64,000 nucleotides of DNA from a virus: IMG/VR virus record IMGVR_UViG_3300028423_000861, positions 64,001-128,000 of that record; one strand, 5' to 3'. Position 1 is the stretch's first letter. Every line of letters begins with the position of its first letter. The notes under the pieces are model-generated. The model did no database searches. It was given only the letters and a program-made list of their open reading frames with translations, and had not been told where the DNA came from. Positions 3,938-54,750 of the stretch are shown in pieces. The position numbers and the translations under genes were made by a program.

Positions 3938-5125
3938 TTAAACCATTTTGAGAAGCTCTTGTTTCGTGAGCTTGAATCCCGAAGTTTCCCACTCCGCCCT
4001 CAGTTGTGCCAGCTTGCGGCCCATCTCAGGACCAGGCGAATGTCCAGCAGAGATAAGATCGCTTCCGCTAAGAGGAAATTCAGGAGGTGACCAGGCCTTG
4101 AGTGCAGGAATTCGGTTCCCTTGACCAACACTGTTTAGCAATGCAAAGACATTTTCTGACTTGATTTTTGGGTCGGCAAGCATACGCTTGATGTCTTCGT
4201 CAGTGAGATCTTGATCACGATTATCGATAATAAATTTGGCGCGATTAAAGACCTCGTTGGAGAATTTCCATTTATTGCGGAGAGTCTGGAGTCCAGCGGT
4301 GTTATTTAGTGCCGCAGCAAGAGCGGCTACTGGATCGTCACCAGTGACCTGCCGCACCATACCAACACGATTATTCGGCATATCAATAGCTTCTAGAACA
4401 TCTGTTTGATCCATGCGCTTGAGAACTTCTGCACGGCTGTTAGGACGGCTGAGAATCTTTTCCATTTCCATCCAAACACGTTCTCCGCTTATATTAGCAA
4501 GTCCTTGGGCATTGCGGGCAACTGCATCCATGGTTTCTTGATCCCATGAAGGACCGTTCAAACGTCCCTGGAAACGAAAGAACCGGAGAATGCGCAAGTA
4601 ATCTTCTTGCATACGTTCATCAGGATTGCCTACAAAACGTGCAACGCCGTTTTCAAGATCTTCAACACCGTCAAAGTAATCATGCAACGTGCCATCCATT
4701 TCCATGCTCATTGCATTAAAAGTCAAATCACGACGTTCAGCATCTTTGCGCCAGTCATTTGTAAACTCTACATCGGCATGACGGCCATCGGTTTCAGAAT
4801 CGATTCTCAACGTTGTAATTTCAATAGGCTCGCCATCCAATATTGCCGTGATAGTCCCATGGTCGAGACCAGTCGGCTCGTGGCGTATTCCTGCCCGATC
4901 TAATATTTCCATCATTTGTTCAGGACGAGCGTCAGTTGCCATGTCAATGTCCTTGGGATCTTTGCCAAGAACAAGATCACGCACAGCACCACCCACAATA
5001 CGAACCTCAAAGCCAGCGGCACGGGCAGCTCGATCCAACGTTCGCACTGCCGGAGTAAGAAGATGATCAAAACGATCATGTTCAAGCTTCATTGTAGCTT
5101 CATTAAGGATATTATGTAGGCGCAT
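3938..5125 (-). CDS. cca: CCA-adding tRNA nucleotidyltransferase
   Basis: VGGAVRD, DIDMAT, EITTLR, RRDLTFNA, EDYLRILRFFRF, ERVWME. Confidence 0.95.
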   Translation of the reverse strand: MRLHNILNEATMKLEHDRFDHLLTPAVRTLDRAARAAGFEVRIVGGAVRDLVLGKDPKDIDMATDARPEQMMEILDRAGIRHEPTGLDHGTITAILDGEPIEITTLRIDSETDGRHADVEFTNDWRKDAERRDLTFNAMSMEMDGTLHDYFDGVEDLENGVARFVGNPDERMQEDYLRILRFFRFQGRLNGPSWDQETMDAVARNAQGLANISGERVWMEMEKILSRPNSRAEVLKRMDQTDVLEAIDMPNNRVGMVRQVTGDDPVAALAAALNNTAGLQTLRNKWKFSNEVFNRAKFIIDNRDQDLTDEDIKRMLADPKIKSENVFALLNSVGQGNRIPALKAWSPPEFPLSGSDLISAGHSPGPEMGRKLAQLRAEWETSGFKLTKQELLKMV

Positions 5126-5180
5126 GTGTTCTCCCTTTCTCAACCTTTATTATGGCCAAGAAACTTCGGTATGTCAAACA

Positions 5181-17371: not shown

Positions 17372-18115
17372 TTATTTTCTTCCCCGAACCCAACCATTCG
17401 GTATATCACTATCTTTCTGTATTCGTTTATTTTTAACACCATCTGTTATCCAAACAGAGCCATACGAATAATTATTTGCACCAGTCATTGCGTTCGAAAT
17501 TTTTTGCTTTGTTTCAGTAGACAATTTATTGCCTTTTCTTGATTCACTCATCTTTTGTCGGGTTGCAGTCGATTTCTTTTTACCTACCAACGCTTCTGAC
17601 AATTTCTTACGATGCTCTTGAGTAATAACCCTTGGCTTTGGCTTCACTGATTTGTTATAGTATGGAATTCCTTGGCATCTTTTTGACATATAATGTTGCT
17701 CAAATGCCGAAACACTTATCTCATTCTGACATTTTAAGCAACATATTCTGTTATGCTTTTTTCCTTTAAATCCTGATGGTCGTTGTTTAGCTTTTTTACT
17801 TATTTTATCTCGAACTTCTGTAGTAAACAAGATTCCTGTATTAATTGAATTATTGTAAAAGGTATTTCCTTCAAATATTTCTTTTTTGTGTTCAGTTAAT
17901 AACTGTCTTTCTAAATTTATTGCTTCATAAGCATTGTCAAAGACTTGAATGATCTCACGTTTCCATTTAATATCAGGATCTTTCCAGTCTTTCCAAAATT
18001 CCTCTGAGCTACTTGATGAAATATATCCATCGTCAGTAGTTCCTTTGTGATACCCTATATATCGTTTGCCTAGTGTATTAGACCATTCATACACAAAATA
18101 TTCAACACGTTTCAT
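17372..18115 (-). CDS. GIY-YIG homing endonuclease with NUMOD3-like repeats
   Basis: FVYEW..YIGYH..DDGYISSS, E..LL, FYN; ETKQKIS-type repeats. Confidence 0.85.
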   Translation of the reverse strand: MKRVEYFVYEWSNTLGKRYIGYHKGTTDDGYISSSSSEEFWKDWKDPDIKWKREIIQVFDNAYEAINLERQLLTEHKKEIFEGNTFYNNSINTGILFTTEVRDKISKKAKQRPSGFKGKKHNRICCLKCQNEISVSAFEQHYMSKRCQGIPYYNKSVKPKPRVITQEHRKKLSEALVGKKKSTATRQKMSESRKGNKLSTETKQKISNAMTGANNYSYGSVWITDGVKNKRIQKDSDIPNGWVRGRK

Positions 18116-18162
18116 AAATAAGCCTTTTAACTGTATACTTATTTATGTTAATAAGATGGAAA

Positions 18163-19040
18163 TAGTGAGATTACCTAAATTTCCGCGGTTGCCTTTGGAC
18201 CGTACCGTAAACCTTGCGAGTCTACGTTAATCCGTTATCCACTAAGCGCCTTTCAGCTGACTTAGTATCAACCAGTGCTGCCTAGTTTAAAGTGGTGGCA
18301 TTTCCACTATCGTTACACGCTACTCGTCCTTTGATCTTCCGCCTGCCTTGCGAGCAGTTCAGAGTCGCTAAACCCTTACGTCTTCTCTCCGAACAAACAC
18401 TTCCGCCTTGCGAGCTTCCATGCACGACATTCACCGTAGTGTGTCGTATTAAGCACCTTTAACGTGCAACTGAGGCAGTCTTTGCGTTTTTGCTATAATG
18501 CATCTGCAGGATTTGAACCCACACATTCAGTTCCTAAAGACTGACGCTCTACCATTGAGCTAAGTTGCTAACCTACCAAGACGTGCTGCCTCTTGTTGCT
18601 TCGCATCCTTTTGGGAAACGAAATACAACACGCCTAAATGCCTTTCTCCTTGCGGGATACTAAACGTCTTTTCAAGTATCCAGCTACCTCACTAGTCGGT
18701 AACTCTCAACTTTAAAGATAACAAGTTGCCCTCCTGCGCGAACAGTCGGACTATTTGTTTACCCGTTAACATTCTGTCTTCGCTAGATTGGAGTGCATAG
18801 CTTTGGCTCCCACCAAATTGTAACCTCGCCGGTTGGCCCTGGTTACTATCCTTTCGGGCATTTGCTCTAGCTTAGGACTTACCTCGCTCTTCACAAGGGG
18901 TGCGCTACGGCTTATAGGAATACATCCGTCTGCCACCTAGTCCGGGCTTGCGTAAATGGACCATTGCTGGCGCAAGTGCGTAGGCTTCCTTGCTTTGGCA
19001 GTGTTACCACTGTTATCCTCCTGGACGTCACGCCGCCCAT
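18163..19040 (-). ncRNA. GOLLD-like giant structured RNA
   Basis: ~880 nt without a long ORF; repeated CTCGCAAGG loops; GTGTTGTATTTCG..CCAAAAGG..GAAGCAAC, AAAGGTGCTTAA and 3' GTAATCTCA, recognised from memory of GOLLD; 5' end uncertain. Confidence 0.75.
18500..18568 (-). ncRNA. degenerate tRNA-like domain embedded in the giant RNA
   Basis: TAGCTCAATGGTAGAGC D-arm, TCAGT/ACTGA stem with 8-nt loop, GGTTCAAATCC, no CCA. Confidence 0.7.
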
Positions 19041-30854: not shown

Positions 30855-30944
30855 TGGCGGAGGGCCCGAGAATCGAACTCGATGCGCTTTCACGCACAAT
30901 CGGTTTAGCAAACCGTTCCAGGCACCAGCCTGATTGTACCCTCC
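30855..30944 (-). tRNA. tRNA-Ser(GCU)
   Basis: loop TTGCTAA, long V-arm. Confidence 0.88.
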
Positions 30945-36835: not shown

Positions 36836-36922
36836 TGGTGCTAGCTGAAGGATTCGAACCTTCGACGGGCAATCGCCAACGGCTTACAAGACCGTTCCCT
36901 TCGTCCACTCGGGCAAGCTAGC
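36836..36922 (-). tRNA. tRNA-Thr(UGU), long V-arm
   Basis: ACGGT-CTTGTAA-GCCGT. Confidence 0.85.
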
Positions 36923-37261: not shown

Positions 37262-37348
37262 TGGTGCTAACTGAAGGATTTGAACCTTCGATGGGCTTGT
37301 GCCAACGGCTTACGAAACCGTTCCCTTCGTCCGCTCGGGCAAGCTAGC
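37262..37348 (-). tRNA. tRNA-Thr(CGU), long V-arm, duplicate of 36836-36922
   Basis: near-identical body, loop TTCGTAA. Confidence 0.85.
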
Positions 37349-40685: not shown

Positions 40686-41476
40686 TCAGTTATAAATGTA
40701 GACAATACGAGATGTATAACCAAACTCATTGTCTAGTATTCTTTGCATGAGTTCTGCTTTTTGTGTTGCAGCTTGCTCTGTTCTAGCATCAACATAATCT
40801 CGCCCTAGCGAGAAGCTCTTAAGCAGCCTCTGACGTAATTTAGTTAGTATTTGATCACTGTAACTACGACGGACTTCATATCTTATACGATACTTTTCGT
40901 TCTCGCCCTGTGCGTATATAATAAAATCTGTATCTGCTGTAACAACCATGATTATCTGCTTACATAAAAGCCCGCACCGCCCCAGGATGTGCCACTAACT
41001 TTACCGTAAAATACTCGAACACCATCGCTGGTCATGAAAGAATGACTGTCTGTGACGTCTATTTGTCCATCCGTATATACGCTTATTGTTTCTTCAAAAT
41101 CACTGATAATATCACGACGTGTGCTGAGATCAATATCTGATCCGATCTTGAGAAAAGCAATATAACGACGATCGAATTGTCCTTGAGGAATGTCGATATT
41201 GTATTCTGGTTCGATCATGCTATAGCTACGAGCGATGAATTTTCCAGTATCCGGGCCACTTGGACGTTCTTTATAGCCGGCTCCAGCTTCGCTTTCCCAA
41301 GTTCGAGCAACGTCCGCCGTTACTCTCATTAAACGACTTTCAAGACTGTCAAAGTTCATGTCGATTTCTTGTATATTATTCACAGCCTCAATCAATGACA
41401 TGATCTCTCTCATCTCTCGCCCATCTGACATTATCAATACTCCTACATTATCAGTATTTATATGTCAACATAATAA

Positions 41477-41551
41477 TGGAGGACCGTCTGGGGTTCGAAC
41501 CCAGGACACGAGGATTAAAAGTCCCCTGCTCTACCACTGAGCTAACGGTCC
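41477..41551 (-). tRNA. tRNA-Lys(UUU)
   Basis: loop CTTTTAA. Confidence 0.92.
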
Positions 41552-41569
41552 ACCGTTGTTTCATGATAT

Positions 41570-41647
41570 TGGTAGACCGGGTGGGGTTCGAACCCACGTT
41601 GACAGGGATTAAGAGTCCCTCGCTAAACCAAACTCAGCTACCGGTCC
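41570..41647 (-). tRNA. tRNA-Lys(CUU)
   Basis: loop CTCTTAA. Confidence 0.92.
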
Positions 41648-41667
41648 ACGAATATCACGAAAGTATA

Positions 41668-41755
41668 TGGAGGACCGGGTGGGATTCGAACCCACGATGG
41701 GCTTGCGCCACTGGATTAAAAGTCCAGTCTCTTCGACCGCTCGAGTCACCGGTCC
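41668..41755 (-). tRNA. tRNA-Lys(UUU), long V-arm
   Basis: CTGGA-CTTTTAA-TCCAG, V-arm TGGCGCAAGCCCAT. Confidence 0.87.
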
Positions 41756-41812
41756 AGGTGAAATGCAACTATATTGTCATCCCATCCTGGACCGCTGCGT
41801 TGTCCAGGACAG

Positions 41813-41839
41813 TTAGGTTTTCTTGGCCTTGCGTTTCAT
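41813..41839 (-). CDS. Lys-rich leader peptide MKRKAKKT upstream of three tRNA-Lys genes
   Basis: AAGGA RBS, ATG AAA CGC AAG GCC AAG AAA ACC TAA, hairpin 41782-41812 follows. Confidence 0.6.
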   Translation of the reverse strand: MKRKAKKT

Positions 41840-41861
41840 TGCTCTGTCCTTTCTGTTTCAA

Positions 41862-42578
41862 TTAGAGCTGAACCTTACTGGTTCGATTAATCATAAAAGC
41901 GGCTTCGCCGTTTTCTTCAAGTAGTTTGCCCATGTCTTCAAATGTGATATAGCAATCTCCATCTATACCCCATGTTCGACCCCATGAATTGCGCAATGTA
42001 AAGTATCCTTTCTTTACATTCACCGCGCGGGCCAGGAGTGCATGGCCTCCCATAATACTTCCAGATGGTTGGATAAATCCATTTTCATCTGGCTTATACA
42101 TTCCTTCATACCATCTAACACCCAACACTGCTGGACCGTTGTAACCTACACCCAAAACTAGATCTTCAAGTCCAAATGCCCAGCGATATGATTTAAAGAA
42201 CCCAATCTTTTTCATAACTTTGATCCCAGCCAGAACACTTGTTCCTTCATACTGTGGATCTCCGCCTGGATAAACGCCACCTGGCCACGGGTCTATTTTT
42301 TGAGCTTCATGGTATACATTTTCAACCAAATAGTCAAATGTTAAACCTTTAAATTCAGCTGGTCTTGACGCTGCCTCATGTCCAAGTGCAAATCCAACAC
42401 ATGCGCCCTCGCGGCCTTGGTCAAACCATTCATTGCAACGCCAGGTATATGATCTTGGAAACTTATCAGAAACAAGTTCACTAATTGGATATTCACGGCT
42501 TCTTTCATCGAAGTTTTCTAGTCTTGTCAGTCGTGAATCCTGTGTTACGGTGCCATTTTTTAATTTTACGGATGTCAT
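41862..42578 (-). CDS. papain-like (C1A) cysteine peptidase
   Basis: DQGREGACVGFA, GGHA, RNSWG..WG..G. Confidence 0.9.
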   Translation of the reverse strand: MTSVKLKNGTVTQDSRLTRLENFDERSREYPISELVSDKFPRSYTWRCNEWFDQGREGACVGFALGHEAASRPAEFKGLTFDYLVENVYHEAQKIDPWPGGVYPGGDPQYEGTSVLAGIKVMKKIGFFKSYRWAFGLEDLVLGVGYNGPAVLGVRWYEGMYKPDENGFIQPSGSIMGGHALLARAVNVKKGYFTLRNSWGRTWGIDGDCYITFEDMGKLLEENGEAAFMINRTSKVQL

Positions 42579-42606
42579 ATCAAATCTCCCTTTACGGAGA
42601 TATTTA

Positions 42607-42682
42607 TGGTCAGGGTGGAGGGTCTCGAACCCCCGTTCTCCTGGCTCCAAACCAGGCGACTTACCAACTAGCCCACACCCTG
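42607..42682 (-). tRNA. tRNA-Pro(UGG)
   Basis: loop TTTGGAG. Confidence 0.9.
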
Positions 42683-42688
42683 AAAAAC

Positions 42689-42743
42689 TGGAGCAAAGAT
42701 TCGGACTGTTTACCGCCAGACAATTCTGATTAATACTCTTTGC
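42689..42743 (-). ncRNA. 55-nt minihelix ending in UCCA
   Basis: GCAAAGA/TCTTTGC-TCCA. Confidence 0.45.
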
Positions 42744-42766
42744 CAATATTATCTGGATATTATATT

Positions 42767-42843
42767 TGGTAGGCGGTGGCGGAATTGAACCCCAAACCGA
42801 CGCGATCTTGTAAGGATCGCCGACTACACCATAGCTGCCGCCT
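42767..42843 (-). tRNA. tRNA-Val(UAC), atypical
   Basis: GCGATC-CTTACAA-GATCGC. Confidence 0.75.
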
Positions 42844-42852
42844 ATAAAAACT

Positions 42853-42928
42853 TGGTCTGGATGGCTGGATTCGAACCAGCGTTCAATCCTTCCGAGGGAT
42901 TGCGATGCGTCCACTCTCTTACACCCAG
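42853..42928 (-). tRNA. tRNA-Pro(CGG)
   Basis: AATCC-CTCGGAA-GGATT. Confidence 0.82.
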
Positions 42929-42933
42929 TAATA

Positions 42934-43010
42934 TGGTGGGCCTCCTTGGATTCGAACCAAGACTCTCAACCGTTATGAGCGGCGCGTGTTAACCGTTACA
43001 CCAGAAGCCC
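42934..43010 (-). tRNA. tRNA-CAU (probably Ile2)
   Basis: GGGCTT acceptor, loop CTCATAA. Confidence 0.85.
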
Positions 43011-43024
43011 GAAAACATTCATAT

Positions 43025-43099
43025 TGGATCTCCCTGCTGGATTCGAACCCGCAACTCCGGAACCAAACTCCGACGTCCTGCCAATTAGACCAAGGGAGA
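43025..43099 (-). tRNA. tRNA-Gln(UUG)
   Basis: loop GTTTGGT. Confidence 0.85.
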
Positions 43100-43193
43100 A
43101 CAAATTATTAACATAGCTAGCCCCTCCACTCCTTCCGGCACCCCGTGTGCGCTGCTATGTTGAACGACTTTCTCGTTCTTAACCACGGATCTT

Positions 43194-43281
43194 TGGTTGG
43201 GGAGGTGGGATTCGAACCCACTCACCGTTTCCGGAACGGGGTTACAGCCCGCCGCAGCTCTCCAAACTCTACCGCTCCCCA
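43194..43281 (-). tRNA. tRNA-Tyr(GUA)
   Basis: loop CTGTAAC, long V-arm. Confidence 0.88.
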
Positions 43282-43303
43282 ATGAAACTTTATATTTGAC
43301 TTT

Positions 43304-43383
43304 TGGTGGAGATAGGGAAGGCGTGTAGTCTCTCCTAGGCGGCCCCAACTGGCCCCGCAGTTATACACTCTGCGCATATCCCC
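43304..43383 (-). ncRNA. tRNA mimic with Ala-type acceptor stem
   Basis: GGGGATA/TATCTCC-ACCA with G3:U70, three non-canonical arms. Confidence 0.65.
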
Positions 43384-43393
43384 ATACTTGATT

Positions 43394-43470
43394 TGGTATC
43401 CGAGGTGAGATTCGAACTCACACTGTATAGGTTCTAAGCCTACTGCCTCTGCCAGTTGGGCTACTCGGAC
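43394..43470 (-). tRNA. tRNA-Leu(UAG), short V-arm
   Basis: GTAGG-CTTAGAA-CCTAT. Confidence 0.88.
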
Positions 43471-43476
43471 ACATAT

Positions 43477-43552
43477 TGGTAGCGGGTGCCGGATTCGAAC
43501 CGACGACCTAGTGGTTATGAGCCACTCGAGCTGCCCACTGCTCCAACCCGCA
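43477..43552 (-). tRNA. tRNA-Met(CAU), initiator-like
   Basis: 1:72 mismatch, GCGGG acceptor. Confidence 0.88.
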
Positions 43553-43639
43553 ACTGTTTGCTGGACTCTTTGTAAGGTTGCGAACCTTTTATTTGTTTAC
43601 GCATCTATCATAACAACCCAGATGCAACCAGCTAATTCA

Positions 43640-43724
43640 TGGTGGGAGAGTGTGGAATCGAACCACGCGCTTTTACACTCCAGTTTTACAGACCTTCTGT
43701 AGGGACCACCTACTGAACTCTCCC
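43640..43724 (-). tRNA. tRNA-Tyr(GUA), 8/4 fold, weak anticodon stem
   Basis: GGGAGAGT/ACTCTCCC, loop CTGTAAA. Confidence 0.7.
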
Positions 43725-43733
43725 ATGTATTTT

Positions 43734-43810
43734 TGGTAGTCGAGGAAGGAATCGAACCTTCATAAGACGGTTATCGGCCGCCCGCAATTGACCAACTCTG
43801 CCACACGACT
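43734..43810 (-). tRNA. tRNA-Ile(GAU)
   Basis: loop CCGATAA. Confidence 0.82.
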
Positions 43811-43816
43811 ATATTC

Positions 43817-43895
43817 TGGTGCCTCTGGGAAGAGTCGAACTTCCGACAGACAAGCCTTATCAGGACTCCGCTCTAACCAACTGAGCTACAGAGGC
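43817..43895 (-). tRNA. tRNA-Ile(GAU)
   Basis: loop CTGATAA. Confidence 0.9.
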
Positions 43896-43901
43896 AAATA
43901 T

Positions 43902-43979
43902 TGGTAGCGGGAGTGGGATTTGCACCCACGTCGATCGGCTTATGAGACCGATGCTGGCAACTACTCCAGTCCATCCCGA
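43902..43979 (-). tRNA. tRNA-Met(CAU), atypical
   Basis: loop CTCATAA, T-loop TGCAAAT. Confidence 0.75.
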
Positions 43980-44090
43980 CATGATTCTTTAAAACGGGCA
44001 GCGAGGGGATTTGCACCAGGTCCCTAAACCCTCTCCTCTTTTTCACTGACTAGGGAATCAGCTACTCTAGCGCCTTGCACTGCCACTAAC

Positions 44091-44166
44091 TGGCGGATGT
44101 GAAGGGATTCGAACCCTCGCATGGCGGATCGACAATCCGCTGTGTTAACCACTTCACCACACATCC
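44091..44166 (-). tRNA. tRNA-Asp(GUC)
   Basis: GCGGA-TTGTCGA-TCCGC. Confidence 0.92.
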
Positions 44167-44188
44167 AAATCTTCTTGCTCAACGACAA

Positions 44189-44259
44189 TTTACATACAGG
44201 AATCGAACCTGTGTCCCCCGGTTTTTGGCCGGGCGGCATATCCACTAGCCCAATGTAGC
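44189..44259 (-). pseudogene. tRNA relic (AAA at anticodon position, frayed acceptor, no CCA)
   Basis: intact D and T arms. Confidence 0.6.
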
Positions 44260-44438
44260 ACAAACATGTTCCGTGTTGCAGAACAGAACACATAAGGGTC
44301 TTTGAGCAAAGGTGCTGCAACACACCTATTCAAATTCAGCCGGAAGTTTCTTTTAACGTGCTGCCGGATCAGACACACAATTGCAATGGATGTGTAGTAT
44401 TCGTTGGCGCCCCACCCATCTTATTGCAAAATGGTATT

Positions 44439-44511
44439 TGGCACCCTCGAGAAGAATCGAACTTCTGTAAGCTGGCTTCGTAGACCTGCCACCGGATCCA
44501 CCGGCGAGGGT
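44439..44511 (-). tRNA. tRNA-Arg(ACG)
   Basis: loop CTACGAA. Confidence 0.8.
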
Positions 44512-44701
44512 GTTATAGTAATTCTTTACTCTGGAATATTTCGTAATTTACTTGTTCATCTAAACGATCACTCACTAAATTTTTAGGTTGGTTACGCTCG
44601 GCCTCTTCCCGCGTTTCGAACGGGCCATGAACTCGACTGTAATACCATCCGTTTTCTTTTACATACCACAACATCAAGCTCTCCTTTCTTTATAAAATTT
44701 T

Positions 44702-44778
44702 TGGCAAGGGTGGAGGGAATCGAACCCCCGTCGCAAGGTTTTGGAGACCCGCAGCTTATCCAATTAGAACACACCCCC
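44702..44778 (-). tRNA. tRNA-Trp(CCA)
   Basis: loop CTCCAAA, G73. Confidence 0.85.
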
Positions 44779-44785
44779 ATTATTT

Positions 44786-44863
44786 TGGCTGGCAGAGTGG
44801 GACTCGAACCCACCTTATTCTCGGTTAACAGCCGAGCGCGATCACCTGGATTGCTTTCTGCCA
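44786..44863 (-). tRNA. tRNA-Asn(GUU)
   Basis: CTCGG-CTGTTAA-CCGAG. Confidence 0.85.
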
Positions 44864-44977
44864 ATAATCTCTAGGTCCAGTATGGCCGTTACCACGTGGG
44901 TCTGCCGCCACTTGAATACTGGACTTCTGGCCCTTGCAGAACAAGCTATCCACTAGAGGGCATGTTGGTTTATAATT

Positions 44978-45074
44978 TGGCTGAGCCTAGCCCGGATTCG
45001 AACCGTGCTTCCTATGCTCGAGATACTGTGCACCTCTCTCAAGTTTGCTTTACCCTGTCTAAGCTATAAGCCCA
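44978..45074 (-). ncRNA. tRNA-like RNA with elongated anticodon arm
   Basis: acceptor stem, D-arm, T-loop and GCCA present; CTTGAGA/TCTCGAG extended arm. Confidence 0.65.
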
Positions 45075-45154
45075 TAATTATTATGTGATTGGCTCTTGAC
45101 CCTTCATCGGGCGACTTAGCCTTGCGGTGTCTTATAGACTACAAGGCACCATGT

Positions 45155-45229
45155 TGGCTGCGCAGGTAGGATTCGAACCTACGACCAAGTGATTAACAGT
45201 CACCTGCTCTGCCACTGAGCTACTGCGCA
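45155..45229 (-). tRNA. tRNA-Asn(GUU)
   Basis: canonical cloverleaf. Confidence 0.93.
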
Positions 45230-45269
45230 ATAATTTCTTGCGACTTACGGGTTCTTCACCCTGCGCTAG

Positions 45270-45765
45270 TATTCTGATCACAACTGCTATAAAGTGCTCT
45301 GCCTGGTTTCGAACCTTCGGCCAGCATCAGGCCTACAACCTACCGCACTGCTGTATGGGAAGCAGGAGATTTATAGCATGTGAAATCAGAATAGCTTTTT
45401 AGTTAATGTATAAGATATCATCGCCGTTTTGTCTCTGTACAGGCGTAATCCTGCACAGAGGAACTTAGATATCTTATACAATAACCAACTCTACTTTCAG
45501 CTGCACTATTTGTCAAAGGCGGTCTCGAACCGTCCCGACAACAGTGACAATCTGCCATCGGTGCTCCATATGCAATCCTATAGTGCATGTGAAAGTAAAC
45601 TCTACTTTCATCTGCTGATACATGATGGAGTCGAACCATCTCGGCGGGCCGTCGCCCTATTCGCTACACCGCGTATAAAGAAGGAATCGAACCTTCGCAC
45701 AGTCACCAAGACCCTAGTCCGGAATCGAACCGGATTACCTTACCACGTGCATCAGCATATGAAAA
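45270..45765 (-). ncRNA. three tandem long-stem RNAs with T-loop hairpins (45270-45393, 45493-45596, 45604-45765)
   Basis: each closed by a long stem with TTCAYATGC/GCAGNTG; 1, 1 and 3 GGTTCGA hairpins inside. Confidence 0.65.
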
Positions 45766-46013
45766 CAGAATCAGTCTTCACTACCATTCGGTCTTCTGCG
45801 GGCATTTCAGCCGACATTCTCTCGTGCTAGAAGGAAGTCCTGGGCAACTGGGCCCTCTAGCAGTTGAAAGGAGCACTCCCGGGGTGGTTAGTCCCATTAT
45901 GGCGAGCTGATATGTCGCTACTTGGCGACGCTCCTGTGTTTCGTAACAACCAACTGTGTCGCTTGCTACATGTTCTAAAGTAAGACATCTTGGTTTAAAT
46001 GTCAACTACTTTT

Positions 46014-46181
46014 TTAAAAAATTTCTTCTTTTTTTGAAACTTTATAAAACAGTAGTTTGGTATCCCCGACTGGATTCGAACCAGCACCCTCCAGAGTGAA
46101 AATCTGGCGTCCAAGACCATTTAGACCGCGGGGACATCTTTCTTCGTCTTCTTCGTCTTCTTCTTCGTGTTCGTCTTCCAT
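46014..46181 (-). CDS. Glu(GAA)-rich leader ORF reading through tRNA-Glu(UUC)
   Basis: AGGAG 7 nt before ATG; MEDEHEEEDEEDEER...; 55 codons. Confidence 0.6.
   Translation of the reverse strand: MEDEHEEEDEEDEERCPRGLNGLGRQIFTLEGAGSNPVGDTKLLFYKVSKKEEIF
46058..46135 (-). tRNA. tRNA-Glu(UUC)
   Basis: CCAGA-TTTTCAC-TCTGG. Confidence 0.92.
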
Positions 46182-46198
46182 TACATTGCTCCTAGACT

Positions 46199-46232
46199 AA
46201 AAAACCCTCCTAAGCTTTTTGCTTGGAGGGTT
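46199..46232 (-). terminator. intrinsic terminator of putative attenuator
   Basis: AACCCTCC-AAGC-AAAAA-GCTT-A-GGAGGG-TTTTTT. Confidence 0.85.
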
Positions 46233-46261
46233 GCTTGAGTATACTATCTGATCTAGTTCAG

Positions 46262-46411
46262 CTAGTCTCTTGCACCCTCCCCAATAGGCTCAAAGCGATC
46301 TCCATCGAGGCGTGACTGCATAATGCCATAATTCAACGCCCAGCTTTGTTCGCTGGTATTCAGACCTTTGACGGCCTTGTTGAATATGATATGTGACATT
46401 GTTGTTTGCAT
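46262..46411 (-). CDS. 49-aa attenuator leader peptide
   Basis: ATG..TAG between promoter (TTGACG-17-TATGTT, 46471-46499) and terminator; last codons GGAGGGTGC complementary to the terminator 5' arm. Confidence 0.7.
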   Translation of the reverse strand: MQTTMSHIIFNKAVKGLNTSEQSWALNYGIMQSRLDGDRFEPIGEGARD

Positions 46412-46605
46412 TACTATCTCTGTTTGATGTAGCAGCTTTTGCTGTTACGTTTATTTATCTCTTGTTAATCAACATACGCTAAAAAATCTAACTCGTCAAC
46501 AACTTTTTTTGTTTTTTTTGACGGCAACATGTCGTCGCCGCCATGTTCTTCAATATAGTGCTTGGTGACACAAAGGTCAAGAACTTTTTTAAAATAATTT
46601 TTGCT

Positions 46606-47757
46606 TCACATATAATTGCTGTTAATCATTTTACGAACACGCTCGGAATCAATGGGTTGTGTCTCGCACAGGCCATCAATGATCCGCACACACGATGTTT
46701 TCCACATAGTGTTGTAATCTACTCCCTGCCGCCGCCAGTCATGATAACCTTCTTTCCTAGCAGCTTCCATCGCTAGATCGTTTTGTTTGATAAATTCTTG
46801 GAGTGGGTACAGAACACCGTTTTGATCATAGTATCTTGCTGAGTCGGGACCCACAAGAAAATATTTGTCTTTGCCGATCTTGGGTAGTGATTCCCCCCTT
46901 GCAATGATTTTTTTCACTTGCATCTTGCTTTTACGGAAATCAATTTCATTATCAACATTAACATATTTTGCAAATCTCTCTTCAAGACTCACTTGTTTGT
47001 AGATATGCATTGGTCCTACGTTTCGGCCTTCGAGATGATCCGGAACAATCTTATAAAATTCACGTTCAACATGTTTCTCAAAATCTTCAGGATTATCCGA
47101 GAAAAAACTAAGGAAACCATTACGCGGAACGCTTATTGTGCCGCGTTCGGCCGTTAGTTTTTCGTCAATTACACGCTCACCAATTGGAATGATATATTCA
47201 ACATTATAATATCCAATATACAACCAATCTCCCCACGTATTGGAAACCACATCACCAGGTTGATGATCTAGTGTGGTTTTTTGCTTTTTCTTGTCATGTT
47301 TTTTGACTTCACTCTTGGCTTTTTCAAATGCTTTATCTGCTGAACGAATCAAACGGTTATTCGCACCATCTCGAATCCAGACCAATTCGTCTTTGATTTT
47401 TCCGTGATTGATTTCACAGTTAAGAATTAGATCAACAAGATTGGGAATATAAATTTCCAGTTCAAACCCACGAGGATCAACTACTCTTACAACTTTATTA
47501 TCAGTTACATAACGACCAGACCACCCAACAATTTCAAACCCGGTCATAGGCTTGTTATCATAAACCTTTCCTTCTCGTCCAGCCCAACGACGAGCCGTAG
47601 CTTTTCTTTTCTTAGCACCGCTATCGTCACCATCTGGGACAGCAAATGCTAGAGGTTTTCCACTACAGGTATCTGATTTACCGGTAGTGATATAATATTT
47701 GTCAAAATATTTAGGATTCGAGAGCTTCATCACCAGACTCCAGGTCTTTGTTGCCAT
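46606..47757 (-). CDS. hypothetical phage protein
   Basis: long ORF, DPRGFELEI motif. Confidence 0.7.
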   Translation of the reverse strand: MATKTWSLVMKLSNPKYFDKYYITTGKSDTCSGKPLAFAVPDGDDSGAKKRKATARRWAGREGKVYDNKPMTGFEIVGWSGRYVTDNKVVRVVDPRGFELEIYIPNLVDLILNCEINHGKIKDELVWIRDGANNRLIRSADKAFEKAKSEVKKHDKKKQKTTLDHQPGDVVSNTWGDWLYIGYYNVEYIIPIGERVIDEKLTAERGTISVPRNGFLSFFSDNPEDFEKHVEREFYKIVPDHLEGRNVGPMHIYKQVSLEERFAKYVNVDNEIDFRKSKMQVKKIIARGESLPKIGKDKYFLVGPDSARYYDQNGVLYPLQEFIKQNDLAMEAARKEGYHDWRRQGVDYNTMWKTSCVRIIDGLCETQPIDSERVRKMINSNYM

Positions 47758-48062
47758 TCAATCTATCTTGAATTTCTGATACTGGAACAATACTATGAGC
47801 ACTGTGCACTGATGATTGCTGTTGCTCATAAAGCCACTCGGTAACCTTGTGGGTGGGCCAGAGTGCTATTTGTCCAATCGTGTCTGCAACATGAACAATG
47901 CCGATCATAATCAAACCAAACAGCACGAATGGTAAGAACAAAACAAATGTCATGATCGAAGCCAATTTGATTAGATAAACTTGTCTAACATATTGACGAA
48001 TTTCAGGACATTTACGATAAACTTCGATGTCTTTAAATATTTTTTTCATGATATACCTGCAA

Positions 48063-48148
48063 TGGAGTTGCGGGCGAGAGTCGAACTCGCTAGGTGTTAG
48101 CCTGCCTTGGATTTGCAATCCAGCCCCTTACCGTCCGGGCCCCGCAAC
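48063..48148 (-). tRNA. tRNA-Cys(GCA), long V-arm
   Basis: loop TTGCAAA, U73. Confidence 0.85.
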
Positions 48149-48184
48149 ATCTGCCAGGAGTTAAAACTCCTGGCATTTGGGTGT

Positions 48185-48301
48185 TTAACCGCCCCAACCT
48201 TCAATGGCGCTTTCGCGACATGAACAGTCAGGACCACATTTGCATGATTCACCACATGGGCAAACATCAAGCAAACTGTCTCTATAACCTTCTCTAAACA
48301 T
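48185..48301 (-). CDS. 38-aa Cys-rich (metallothionein-like or leader) peptide upstream of tRNA-Cys
   Basis: AGGAG RBS, CPCGESCKCGPDCSC, hairpin 48152-48175 before the tRNA. Confidence 0.7.
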   Translation of the reverse strand: MFREGYRDSLLDVCPCGESCKCGPDCSCRESAIEGWGG

Positions 48302-49103
48302 GTTAGTCTCCTGTTGCTGGCTATTTATCAGCAACATCATTATGATGCATTTTGATATGATGCATTTTGATAAAGAATTTGTCAACTGTTATTTGTTATA
48401 CTCGGTAAGTTCTTGATCACCAAATGCTAGCTTGAACATAGTGGCATGTTCAGGGTTGCTAAATCCCAAGGTAAAATCATTACCGAACTTGCTGAAAATT
48501 TGATATTCATGGCTACTGGTATTATCTTGTAACCATTCAATGGTCTTTGCAAAATTAAGTTCATTCAACAAAAACAAATCTCTAGGAACGCGAGTCCAGA
48601 GTATTTGTTTTGCAATGCGACGCGGGTTGAGTGAACTAATATTTTTAAGCCCCAAGGCATGTTTTTCGATTTTAGTTGCTGTCATGTATCCAAGAGACTG
48701 CGACTTACATTTAACTTCAATAACATATTTGGATAAACATTTGTTCGTCGGAGACAAAGGACTCGGTTTAAAAACGACCTTGATACTAGGAACACTTTCC
48801 GAAAAATCAAATGGATTATCAGTCAGTCCATACATATCACAATACATTTTTTCGATAAACCGTGATGTTTTTTTATAATACATTTTGAGTGGTGGATAAC
48901 CACTACCAAAAATAGAATCTAGGCGTTTTGTAGGAATCCGGATTTCATAAGACATGTTATTATCAGATGTTACTCTTTTTCTTGGATTTCGCTTTTTCGG
49001 AAAATTTTTCTTTTTTATACTAGAGGACCTTGTAAAAAGATCCTCTAGTTGTTTTTCACGCTCACGTGCTCTTTTGAGAGCGTTGTGAACCCACTGTTTT
49101 CGA

Positions 49104-54138: not shown

Positions 54139-54425
54139 TATGGAGGGATTCTGTTTCTAGGCTCCCTCCGGGCCCAGCTGATTATGCCGCTAGGGCAACC
54201 TCAGCAGGTGCTGCGTTTGTGTTTGCAGTTATTAAGATGCGACTATTTCGCGTTCGCCTCCGACTAACTCCACTTCCCTACAACGTGCATCGATCCTATG
54301 TCGCCCCCATCAAAACATTACTTGCTGTTACACTATGGCCATTAACCTATTTGGTCACAAGTAACGTTATGGTGGAGGCGTCCGGTACTGCCCCGGAGTC
54401 TACTACGCTTTCAAGTTGCTTCCTC
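54139..54425 (-). ncRNA. ssrA: circularly permuted two-piece tmRNA; tag ANTNAAPAEVALAA (54182-54226)
   Basis: acceptor piece ends CGCCTCCACCA at 54370; hairpin spacer; coding piece starts GGGGGCGA at 54308. Confidence 0.92.
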
Positions 54426-54750
54426 GTTAGCATGTTTATTTATACAGAAATCCCAGGGCATTGTCAACTGATTTGCAAACGGAAGTAGACAAGAACCACA
54501 GTCATAATCATCTTGTACAAGTCTTTCAAGTAATTCCTCTTCAGTTGCATAATCTTTTGTGCTAATGCCCCTGCATTGACATATTATCATTTATTGAATC
54601 CATTCAACTTCAACGTTAGTGCTGCCACCACCACGCAAAAATCTCTCACTGCTTGATCCGGTCGCATAAAATTCAGGTTTATAAGGAAGTCTAGAAATAA
54701 CGTTGGCACCCATGCCATTAATTCTCCGTTATTGTTGTATTTATATGGTT

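Follow-up and report, generated by a model that had tools for sequence, protein, structure and literature searches.

The window analysed here is a stretch of 64,000 nt that comprises bases 64001-128000 of the IMG/VR virus record IMGVR_UViG_3300028423_000861. This record is 141,983 bp long at an estimated completeness of 60%, and its source is therefore a jumbo phage. The subject of this report are short open reading frames (ORFs) that precede transfer RNA (tRNA) genes for glutamate, lysine and cysteine and that are rich in the codons read by the tRNA behind them, together with a longer leader at the head of the tRNA array. For the window ARAGORN predicts 43 tRNA genes, which all lie on the minus strand, as do the leader features; for the whole record it predicts 46, one of which is an amber suppressor. 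Further genes come from Rfam: a GOLLD RNA, a permuted transfer-messenger RNA (tmRNA) of the alpha type, a tRNA-Sec-like gene and several tRNAs absent from the ARAGORN list.

An earlier note on this DNA had described three mini-ORFs with ribosome-binding sites (RBS) directly upstream of their cognate tRNA genes (Glu, Lys, Cys), and all three were found in the window on the minus strand. The codon-diverse leader with an attenuator that it had placed at the head of the array was likewise recovered, as an unbiased 49-codon ORF, a terminator and a predicted antiterminator partner. No attenuator follows the Glu ORF; the terminator lies upstream of that ORF. From the upstream end, the features are as follows.

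48357-48385, minus: TTGACA-17-CATCAT, a promoter-like site ahead of the Cys-rich ORF (consensus scan; the match is not evidence of function)
48301-48185, minus: Cys-rich ORF of 38 codons with 6 Cys in the pattern CxCGxxCxCGxxCxC (ATG 48301, TAA 48187-48185; AGGAG 48312-48308)
48174-48153, minus: perfect hairpin of 8-9 bp between the Cys ORF and the tRNA, here lacking a U tract
48148-48063, minus: tRNA with anticodon GCA, long variable arm, U73 and encoded CCA (Rfam RF00005, 39.9 bits, placed by Rfam at 48148-48066; missed by ARAGORN)
46580-46552 and 46499-46471, minus: two tandem promoter-like sites (consensus scan)
46411-46262, minus: 49-codon ORF, whose last codons carry GGAGGGUG (46280-46273), a copy of the terminator 3' arm
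46232-46199, minus: intrinsic terminator, whose 5' arm can pair instead with GGAGGGUG of the ORF (antiterminator)
46136-46193, minus: Glu leader (AGGAG 46193-46189, spacing 7 nt, ATG 46181)
46135-46058, minus: tRNA-Glu(UUC) (ARAGORN, Rfam)
41844-41851, minus: segment 1 of the Lys leader, the ribosome-binding region AAGGACAG, complementary to segment 2 (folding)
41839-41813, minus: Lys mini-ORF, MKRKAKKT and TAA (ATG 41839, TAA 41815-41813; RBS AAGGA; sequence reading)
41812-41782, minus: 11-bp hairpin whose first base directly follows the stop codon of the Lys ORF (pairing 2:3)
41802-41812, minus: segment 2, CUGUCCUGGAC, which begins right after the stop codon (folding)
41782-41794, minus: segment 3, CGGUCCAGGAUGG, whose partner is segment 2 or the tRNA 5' end (folding)
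41750-41781, minus: self-complementary spacer and segment 4, CCUGGACCG (tRNA positions -3 to +6; folding)
41477-41755, minus: three tRNA-Lys genes, UUU (88 nt, long arm, 41755-41668), CUU and UUU (ARAGORN)

Relatives of the genome that holds the window (G000) were collected at two distances. Five distant ones, G001-G003 and G005 among them, were recruited through an ATPase at 30-73% identity and carry 27-41 tRNAs each. Closer ones, whose loci bear L-numbers, are syntenic metagenomic contigs recruited through homologues (36-52% identical) of a 383-residue protein encoded between the Cys and Glu units; three further loci came from a motif scan of metagenome contigs and one via the family of the 49-codon ORF. 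IMG/VR held no relative of the 383-residue protein, a search with an exact 28-mer of the tRNA-Glu gave no match, and when IMG/VR and species genomes were scanned for DNA motifs, the matches were unrelated or there were none.

Cognate codons in the leader ORFs

The association between leader and tRNA in G000 was evaluated on all RBS-bearing ORFs that start at most 150 nt upstream of a typed tRNA (14 ORFs for 45 tRNAs). Each ORF was scored by the binomial enrichment of each amino acid, and the null was obtained by permuting the tRNA labels. The two most amino-acid-biased of the 14 are the Glu and Lys ORFs, both of them cognate (label permutation P = 0.002-0.003), which is more than chance would give in this genome. 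Extending the distance to 200 nt brings in the Cys ORF, and the three ORFs of strongest bias are then all cognate (label permutation P about 0.003 or less); none of 5000 permutations matches the observed count, to which the Lys ORF contributes twice, through two neighbouring tRNAs. Against shuffles of their own letters, the ORFs hold more in-frame cognate codons than expected, with P = 5e-5 for Glu, about 1e-3 to 5e-5 for Cys and 0.01-0.06 for Lys, and the other two frames of the Glu and Lys ORFs contain 0-1 cognate codons. No RBS-bearing ORF of comparable bias adjoins a non-cognate tRNA. Nearly all members have AGGAG, GGAG or AAGGA 5-8 nt 5' of the ATG. The tRNAs that have a leader are always the first ones behind a gap, a gene or a terminator, and no leader lies inside a tight array.

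Predicted alternative pairings and conservation of the units

The Lys unit is present in seven lineages (G000, L059, L090, L089, L071/L078, L080 and L096), with the peptides MKRKAKKT, MKRKVYKKR, MKRKVNKKR and MKRKHKR. The ORF is 7, 8 or 9 codons long through in-frame indels, and its codons 1-4 differ only synonymously (Arg CGC/CGT/CGG; Lys-4 AAG/AAA). In every unit the TAA abuts segment 2 and the hairpin, and the next gene is a tRNA-Lys. Six leaders were folded (L096, found later, was left out), and in 6 of 6 the minimum free energy (MFE) structure combines pairing 1:2 with pairing 3:4. Helix 3:4 measures about 20 bp and joins segment 3 and the spacer to tRNA positions -3 to +6, by which the acceptor 5' strand is predicted to be sequestered. 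In simulated growing transcripts the first pairing is 1:2, the appearance of segment 3 brings a change to 2:3, and synthesis of the tRNA 5' end brings the combination of 3:4 with 1:2. The arrangement of 2:3 with a normal cloverleaf is less stable by 4-8 kcal/mol in the three sequences with computed energies (G000, L059 and L090). Native leaders are more stable than their shuffles, helix 3:4 with z of -1.4 to -2.8 and helix 1:2 with z of -2.1 to -3.2, and RNAalifold selects 3:4.

These structures suggest how a ribosome could set the fate of the tRNA. Stalled at the invariant Lys codons 2 and 4, it would mask segment 1 and leave segment 2 free; hairpin 2:3 would form, the acceptor 5' strand would stay free, and the tRNA could fold and become a substrate of RNase P. 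Once the ribosome has arrived at the stop codon, it would mask segment 2, so that segment 3 and the tRNA 5' end would form the anti-acceptor helix of about 20 bp and maturation would be blocked. Helix 3:4 has no U tract, encloses the tRNA 5' strand and is not an intrinsic terminator; the output of the Lys switch would be tRNA folding and processing, not termination. As an in silico case, this interpretation of the Lys unit is strong.

At the array head, the 49-codon ORF and its terminator are kept in nine loci, where AAAGAGA is a conserved motif ahead of the start codon, and the ORF family comprises 17 protein clusters in a large database. The ORF has no enriched codon, and in G000 it ends in TAG. 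Before the terminator 3' arm is made, the antiterminator (GGAGGG(UG) of the ORF with the terminator 5' arm) is the MFE structure in 8 of 8 lineages, and it is still the MFE structure of the full sequence in two. The core helix has 94% of cells paired and one compensatory pair, G-C to U-A in two lineages. Masking a ribosome footprint at the stop codon abolishes the antiterminator, and therefore termination would be favoured when translation is completed and read-through when it is delayed. A ribosome finishing the ORF would cover GGAGGGUG and the terminator would form; with a ribosome delayed upstream, or with none, GGAGGGUG would pair with the terminator 5' arm and transcription would continue into the tRNAs. 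The predicted array-head attenuator is also strong in silico.

The Glu unit is found in three lineages (G000, L093 and L094). In G000 its peptide begins MEDEHEEEDEEDEE, with 9 GAA in 14 codons, and the frame has no stop ahead of tRNA-Glu(UUC) and is open to 46014. In L093 the leader is MEREHEEIEEAEE, and 2 nt separate its stop codon from a tRNA-Glu(UUC) that is almost the same as in G000. Comparison with the G000 leader shows 8 of the 9 GAA codons unchanged, differences in 4 of the 5 codons for other residues and one in-frame codon deletion (one-sided Fisher 0.023, calculated by hand). L094 has a different yet Glu-rich leader (MEPEEPEERE...), in which Glu alternates with Pro and from which the frame enters tRNA-Glu(UUC). 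Its leader lies behind a 49-codon ORF and a terminator in the same layout as in G000. Folding predicted no alternative pairing of the GAA tract with tRNA-Glu and leaves a steric overlap with the tRNA only. The GAA run stops 4 nt short of the tRNA, so a passing ribosome would cover or unfold the tRNA 5' strand, and one stalled on the early GAA codons would leave that strand uncovered. This interpretation of the Glu unit is plausible.

Cys-rich ORFs of 32-41 codons with 6-8 Cys precede tRNA-Cys in seven lineages (G000, L059, L089, L090, L091, L095 and L096). Five Cys are invariant across six aligned ORFs (the alignment is without L096) and Gly is conserved too. Homologues of the GCA tRNA occur in L058, L059, L062, L090, L091, L095 and L096; L058 has a 12-codon remnant devoid of Cys and L062 has no ORF. 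In L059, L089, L090 and L091, four of the seven lineages, the hairpin ahead of the tRNA is followed up by a U tract. Similar control through this hairpin or terminator may operate, and the leader reading of the Cys unit is the weakest of the three. A terminator-based attenuator was considered for Cys, but none emerged with any of the ribosome masks. Another, small hairpin spans the stop codon of every Cys ORF (48153-48190 in the window; also L059, L089, L090 and L091), ahead of the larger hairpin or terminator, and differs in sequence per lineage. Where other loci hold the Cys unit, L058 (5360-5450) and L060 (9755-9850) have a common conserved non-coding sequence, possibly a structured RNA.

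Interpretation and rival explanations

ORFs, RBSs, their conservation and the alternative helices are read from the sequence, and from them we infer a regulatory logic in which the leader ORFs would be translated, their codon content would be matched to the next tRNA and the position of the ribosome would decide whether that tRNA is made. We regard the case for this translated-leader reading as evenly balanced. Its net effect would be negative feedback, with a phage tRNA being raised when its codons are decoded slowly. The proposal of the earlier note that the logic of leader-peptide attenuation is applied to tRNA genes themselves holds in part: it agrees with the conserved cognate-rich ORFs and with the alternative helices of the Lys and 49-codon leaders, but attenuation by a terminator fits the 49-codon ORF only, and no switch was found for Glu or Cys. 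The expected conservation in relatives is similarly divided. Cognate enrichment is kept, with other residues changing, in the syntenic lineages (seven for Lys, three for Glu and seven for Cys), but the ATPase-found relatives have no cognate-rich leader before tRNA-Glu(UUC), tRNA-Lys or tRNA-Cys, and G001, G002, G003 and G005 are without any unit.

This absence weighs against the translated-leader reading, as do several further observations. The Glu leader is missing before tRNA-Glu(UUC) in 12 other loci, where the tRNA is packed behind another tRNA or a gene. The Lys stems are invariant and show no column covariation; at the array head the stems are invariant as well, and covariation beyond the single compensatory pair is almost nil. 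Pairing of a leader with the acceptor strand is predicted by RNAfold for 9 of 47 tRNAs of G000 and so has a high background. The RBS motif of the Lys leader is at the same time segment 1, which makes its conservation ambiguous, and the Lys ORF has just 7-9 codons and is Arg-rich as well. For Cys, no antiterminator was found and the hairpin or terminator survives every ribosome mask tried, promoters are placed before tRNA-Cys in L058, L062 and L096, and the peptide is metallothionein-like (Pfam Metallothio_6 E 0.013 and Metallothio_2 E 0.24, both below threshold; PDB 1qjl E 4).

The mask-proof hairpin, the metallothionein-like pattern and these promoters are the reasons why the Cys ORF may encode a small metal-binding protein whose position beside tRNA-Cys was inherited. 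Generalized to all units, the ORFs would encode small functional peptides (metal-binding Cys, acidic and basic ones), and their cognate neighbours would reflect inherited order plus coincidence, or co-expression for codon demand. We consider this explanation unlikely. Consistent with it, the Cys peptides retain CxCGxxCxCGxxCxC and conserved Gly, with metallothioneins as the sole database hints, and the promoter in L096 stands between the Cys ORF and tRNA-Cys. G002 contains a Lys-rich ORF of 50 codons that overlaps tRNA-Lys(UUU), with its stop codon 10 nt inside the tRNA; it is probably an ordinary small basic protein because its G003 homologue is not adjacent to tRNA-Lys. However, three chance cognate matches have a probability of about 1e-4 from the tRNA frequencies (2/45, 3/45 and 2/45), the Glu and Lys peptides change in sequence and length with their composition kept, and a peptide of 7-9 residues with a variable middle is an unlikely product. 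The Cys peptide of G000 itself has no metallothionein match at E 0.1, L091 keeps six Cys with altered spacing, and a word search of 5.8 billion proteins found no homologue of the Cys peptide.

Alternatively, the leaders could act as RNA alone, as signals for pre-tRNA processing, stability or folding in which the reading frames are incidental, an explanation that appears quite unlikely. It would account for the Lys leader nucleotides being conserved through hairpin and spacer, for the apparent Lys RBS serving as a helix strand and for the pre-tRNA-Cys hairpin standing at a fixed distance before tRNA-Cys in most lineages. On the other hand, the Lys ORF keeps its start, frame and stop, its three substitutions in codons 3-4 are all third-position and its two indels are multiples of three; the Cys and Glu frames stay open from lineage to lineage, with a well-spaced RBS. 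The cognate content of the ATG frame, as opposed to the other frames of the Glu and Lys ORFs, would be left unexplained.

A third explanation accepts translation but not cognate sensing: the acidic N-termini (MEDEHEEE..., MEPEEPEE...) would abort translation as in MgtL, or non-stop messages arising after RNase P cleavage would feed the phage tmRNA. Acidic and acidic-Pro runs reportedly destabilise ribosomes (Chadani et al. 2017), and Glu alternates with Pro in L094. In G000 and L094 the Glu ORF continues into the tRNA without a stop codon, so RNase P cleavage would turn it into a non-stop message, and the phage has its own tmRNA (54139-54488). Since L093 does stop before the tRNA, and the Lys and Cys units and the overall cognate pattern would stay unexplained, this explanation is improbable. 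Pure coincidence of low-complexity sequence beside tRNAs, to which the partial 9-nt tandem repeat in the G000 Glu tract and the very many windows screened beforehand might point, was first rated probable from the unit-free G001, G002, G003 and G005, was dropped once the syntenic contigs showed units, and is highly improbable given the permutation tests and the independent lineages that conserve the units and selectively retain cognate codons.

Leader-peptide attenuators are represented by pheM of the E. coli pheST operon and by trpL, hisL, pheL, thrL and leuL. As in the pheM/trpL type, the phage leaders are short RBS-bearing ORFs rich in the codons whose decoding would be gauged, and the four segments of the Lys unit would, as folding of six sequences predicts, form mutually exclusive helices set by ribosome position; as with pheM, a gene of the translation apparatus would be controlled. 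In contrast, the genes downstream are tRNAs rather than biosynthesis or aminoacyl-tRNA synthetase genes, the Lys helix 3:4 sequesters a tRNA 5' acceptor strand and is no terminator, and the Glu unit is devoid of alternative helices. The 49-codon ORF has a terminator and antiterminator but no enriched codon, and lack of its translation would lead to read-through, not termination. The pheL attenuator is among the compared leader-peptide systems (PMC3082878).

Polycysteine short ORFs of mycobacteria (Canestrari et al., bioRxiv 10.1101/834739) are similar in being short and Cys-rich; ribosomes stalled on them remodel the downstream RNA according to Cys supply, as tested by mutation. They differ in being leaderless and in controlling the translation of Cys-metabolism genes. 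The phage Cys ORF, by comparison, has an RBS, precedes tRNA-Cys, shows a metallothionein-like pattern and has no detected alternative pairing. T-box riboswitches also gauge the state of one specific tRNA to control translation-related genes, but the phage leaders have neither a specifier loop nor a T-box sequence, and sensing would run through ribosomes instead of direct tRNA binding. An Rfam scan of 41400-48500 with E up to 1 detected no T-box or known leader family. MgtL-type leaders are short acidic ORFs whose translation outcome sets the fate of the downstream RNA, and ArfA-type ORFs are truncated by RNA processing. The phage leaders resemble them in comprising acidic short ORFs and ORFs possibly cut by RNA processing, but have no sequence relationship to them.

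The predicted parts can be combined into a layered, ribosome-read circuit of tRNA supply in giant phages. A general attenuator at the array head would open when translation slows, codon-specific leaders would release single tRNAs via an anti-acceptor switch on pre-tRNA folding and RNase P access, and the odd long-arm Lys and Cys tRNAs, released first, could be back-ups when host defence nucleases deplete the normal ones. This model is tentative and rather doubtful, and any connection with PrrC or other anticodon nucleases is speculative.

tRNA genes are commonly regarded as constitutively expressed and passively processed. If the translated-leader reading is true, leader-peptide sensing would gain a new kind of output in the codon-specific, ribosome-gated maturation of tRNA. 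Such control would account for the way in which tRNA-rich phages dose their dozens of tRNAs and would provide a testable link between phage tRNAs and host defences that target tRNA. The Lys leader, about 85 nt long, might find use as a synthetic sensor of decoding capacity. Searches of the open-access literature brought up no account of leader peptides ahead of phage tRNA genes.

Other features of the tRNA-rich region

Several tRNAs combine a long variable arm or an enlarged D region with an anticodon usually found in short-arm tRNAs (Lys, Thr, Cys, Ile, Asn and Gly). These forms recur across the phage group, and such a form often stands first behind the Lys and Cys leaders. They were located at the following positions.

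Window, 41668-41755, 36836-36922, 37262-37348 and 48063-48148: odd-form tRNAs
L053, 6427-6511: odd-form tRNA
L054, 9801-9885: odd-form tRNA
L056, 6408-6494 and 7246-7339: odd-form tRNAs
L058-L060, L089 and L090: 84-nt tRNA-Asn of odd form

The group also encodes a tRNA-Sec-like gene and suppressor tRNAs for TAG, TGA or TAA that differ by lineage, hinting at stop-codon recoding.

Window, 30859-30944: tRNA-Sec-like or suppressor gene
G000, genome base 44210-44285 (outside the window): tRNA-Sec-like or suppressor gene
L050, 1168-1240: tRNA-Sec-like or suppressor gene
L090, 7975-8055: tRNA-Sec-like or suppressor gene
L059, 11827-11907: tRNA-Sec-like or suppressor gene

A gene for a tRNA nucleotidyltransferase (CCA-adding enzyme) lies at 3938-5143 of the window, though CCA is encoded in most tRNAs here. 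The permuted tmRNA of the window is of the two-piece kind and has a counterpart in L062 (4701-5106); it may be relevant to the leaders, as several ORFs run into tRNAs and cleavage by RNase P would leave them non-stop.

Between tRNA-Pro(UGG) and the Lys leader, G000 alone carries a gene for a papain-like (C1) peptidase (window 41862-42578; PHROG 16701, E 2e-62); the relatives have the Lys leader directly behind tRNA-Pro. No tRNA array was found near relatives of the C1-like peptidase. A small basic protein of 50-58 residues that starts with MK[RN]K is kept in L053 (8024-8176) and L054 (8416-8590); it belongs to no Pfam family, and in G002 it is the one whose stop codon falls inside tRNA-Lys(UUU). 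An ArfA-like identity was considered for the Lys-rich ORF of G002 and rejected, there being no Pfam match.

Past a promoter-like site near 46010 begins an ORF-free stretch of about 750 nt (window 45240-45800) with several T-loop-like hairpins containing GGTTCGA, none of which is called a tRNA by any tool. Lastly, the GOLLD RNA (window 18162-18636, Rfam 181.9 bits) contains a tRNA-like element at 18498-18569 and is adjoined by a homing-endonuclease-like gene at 17372-18115.

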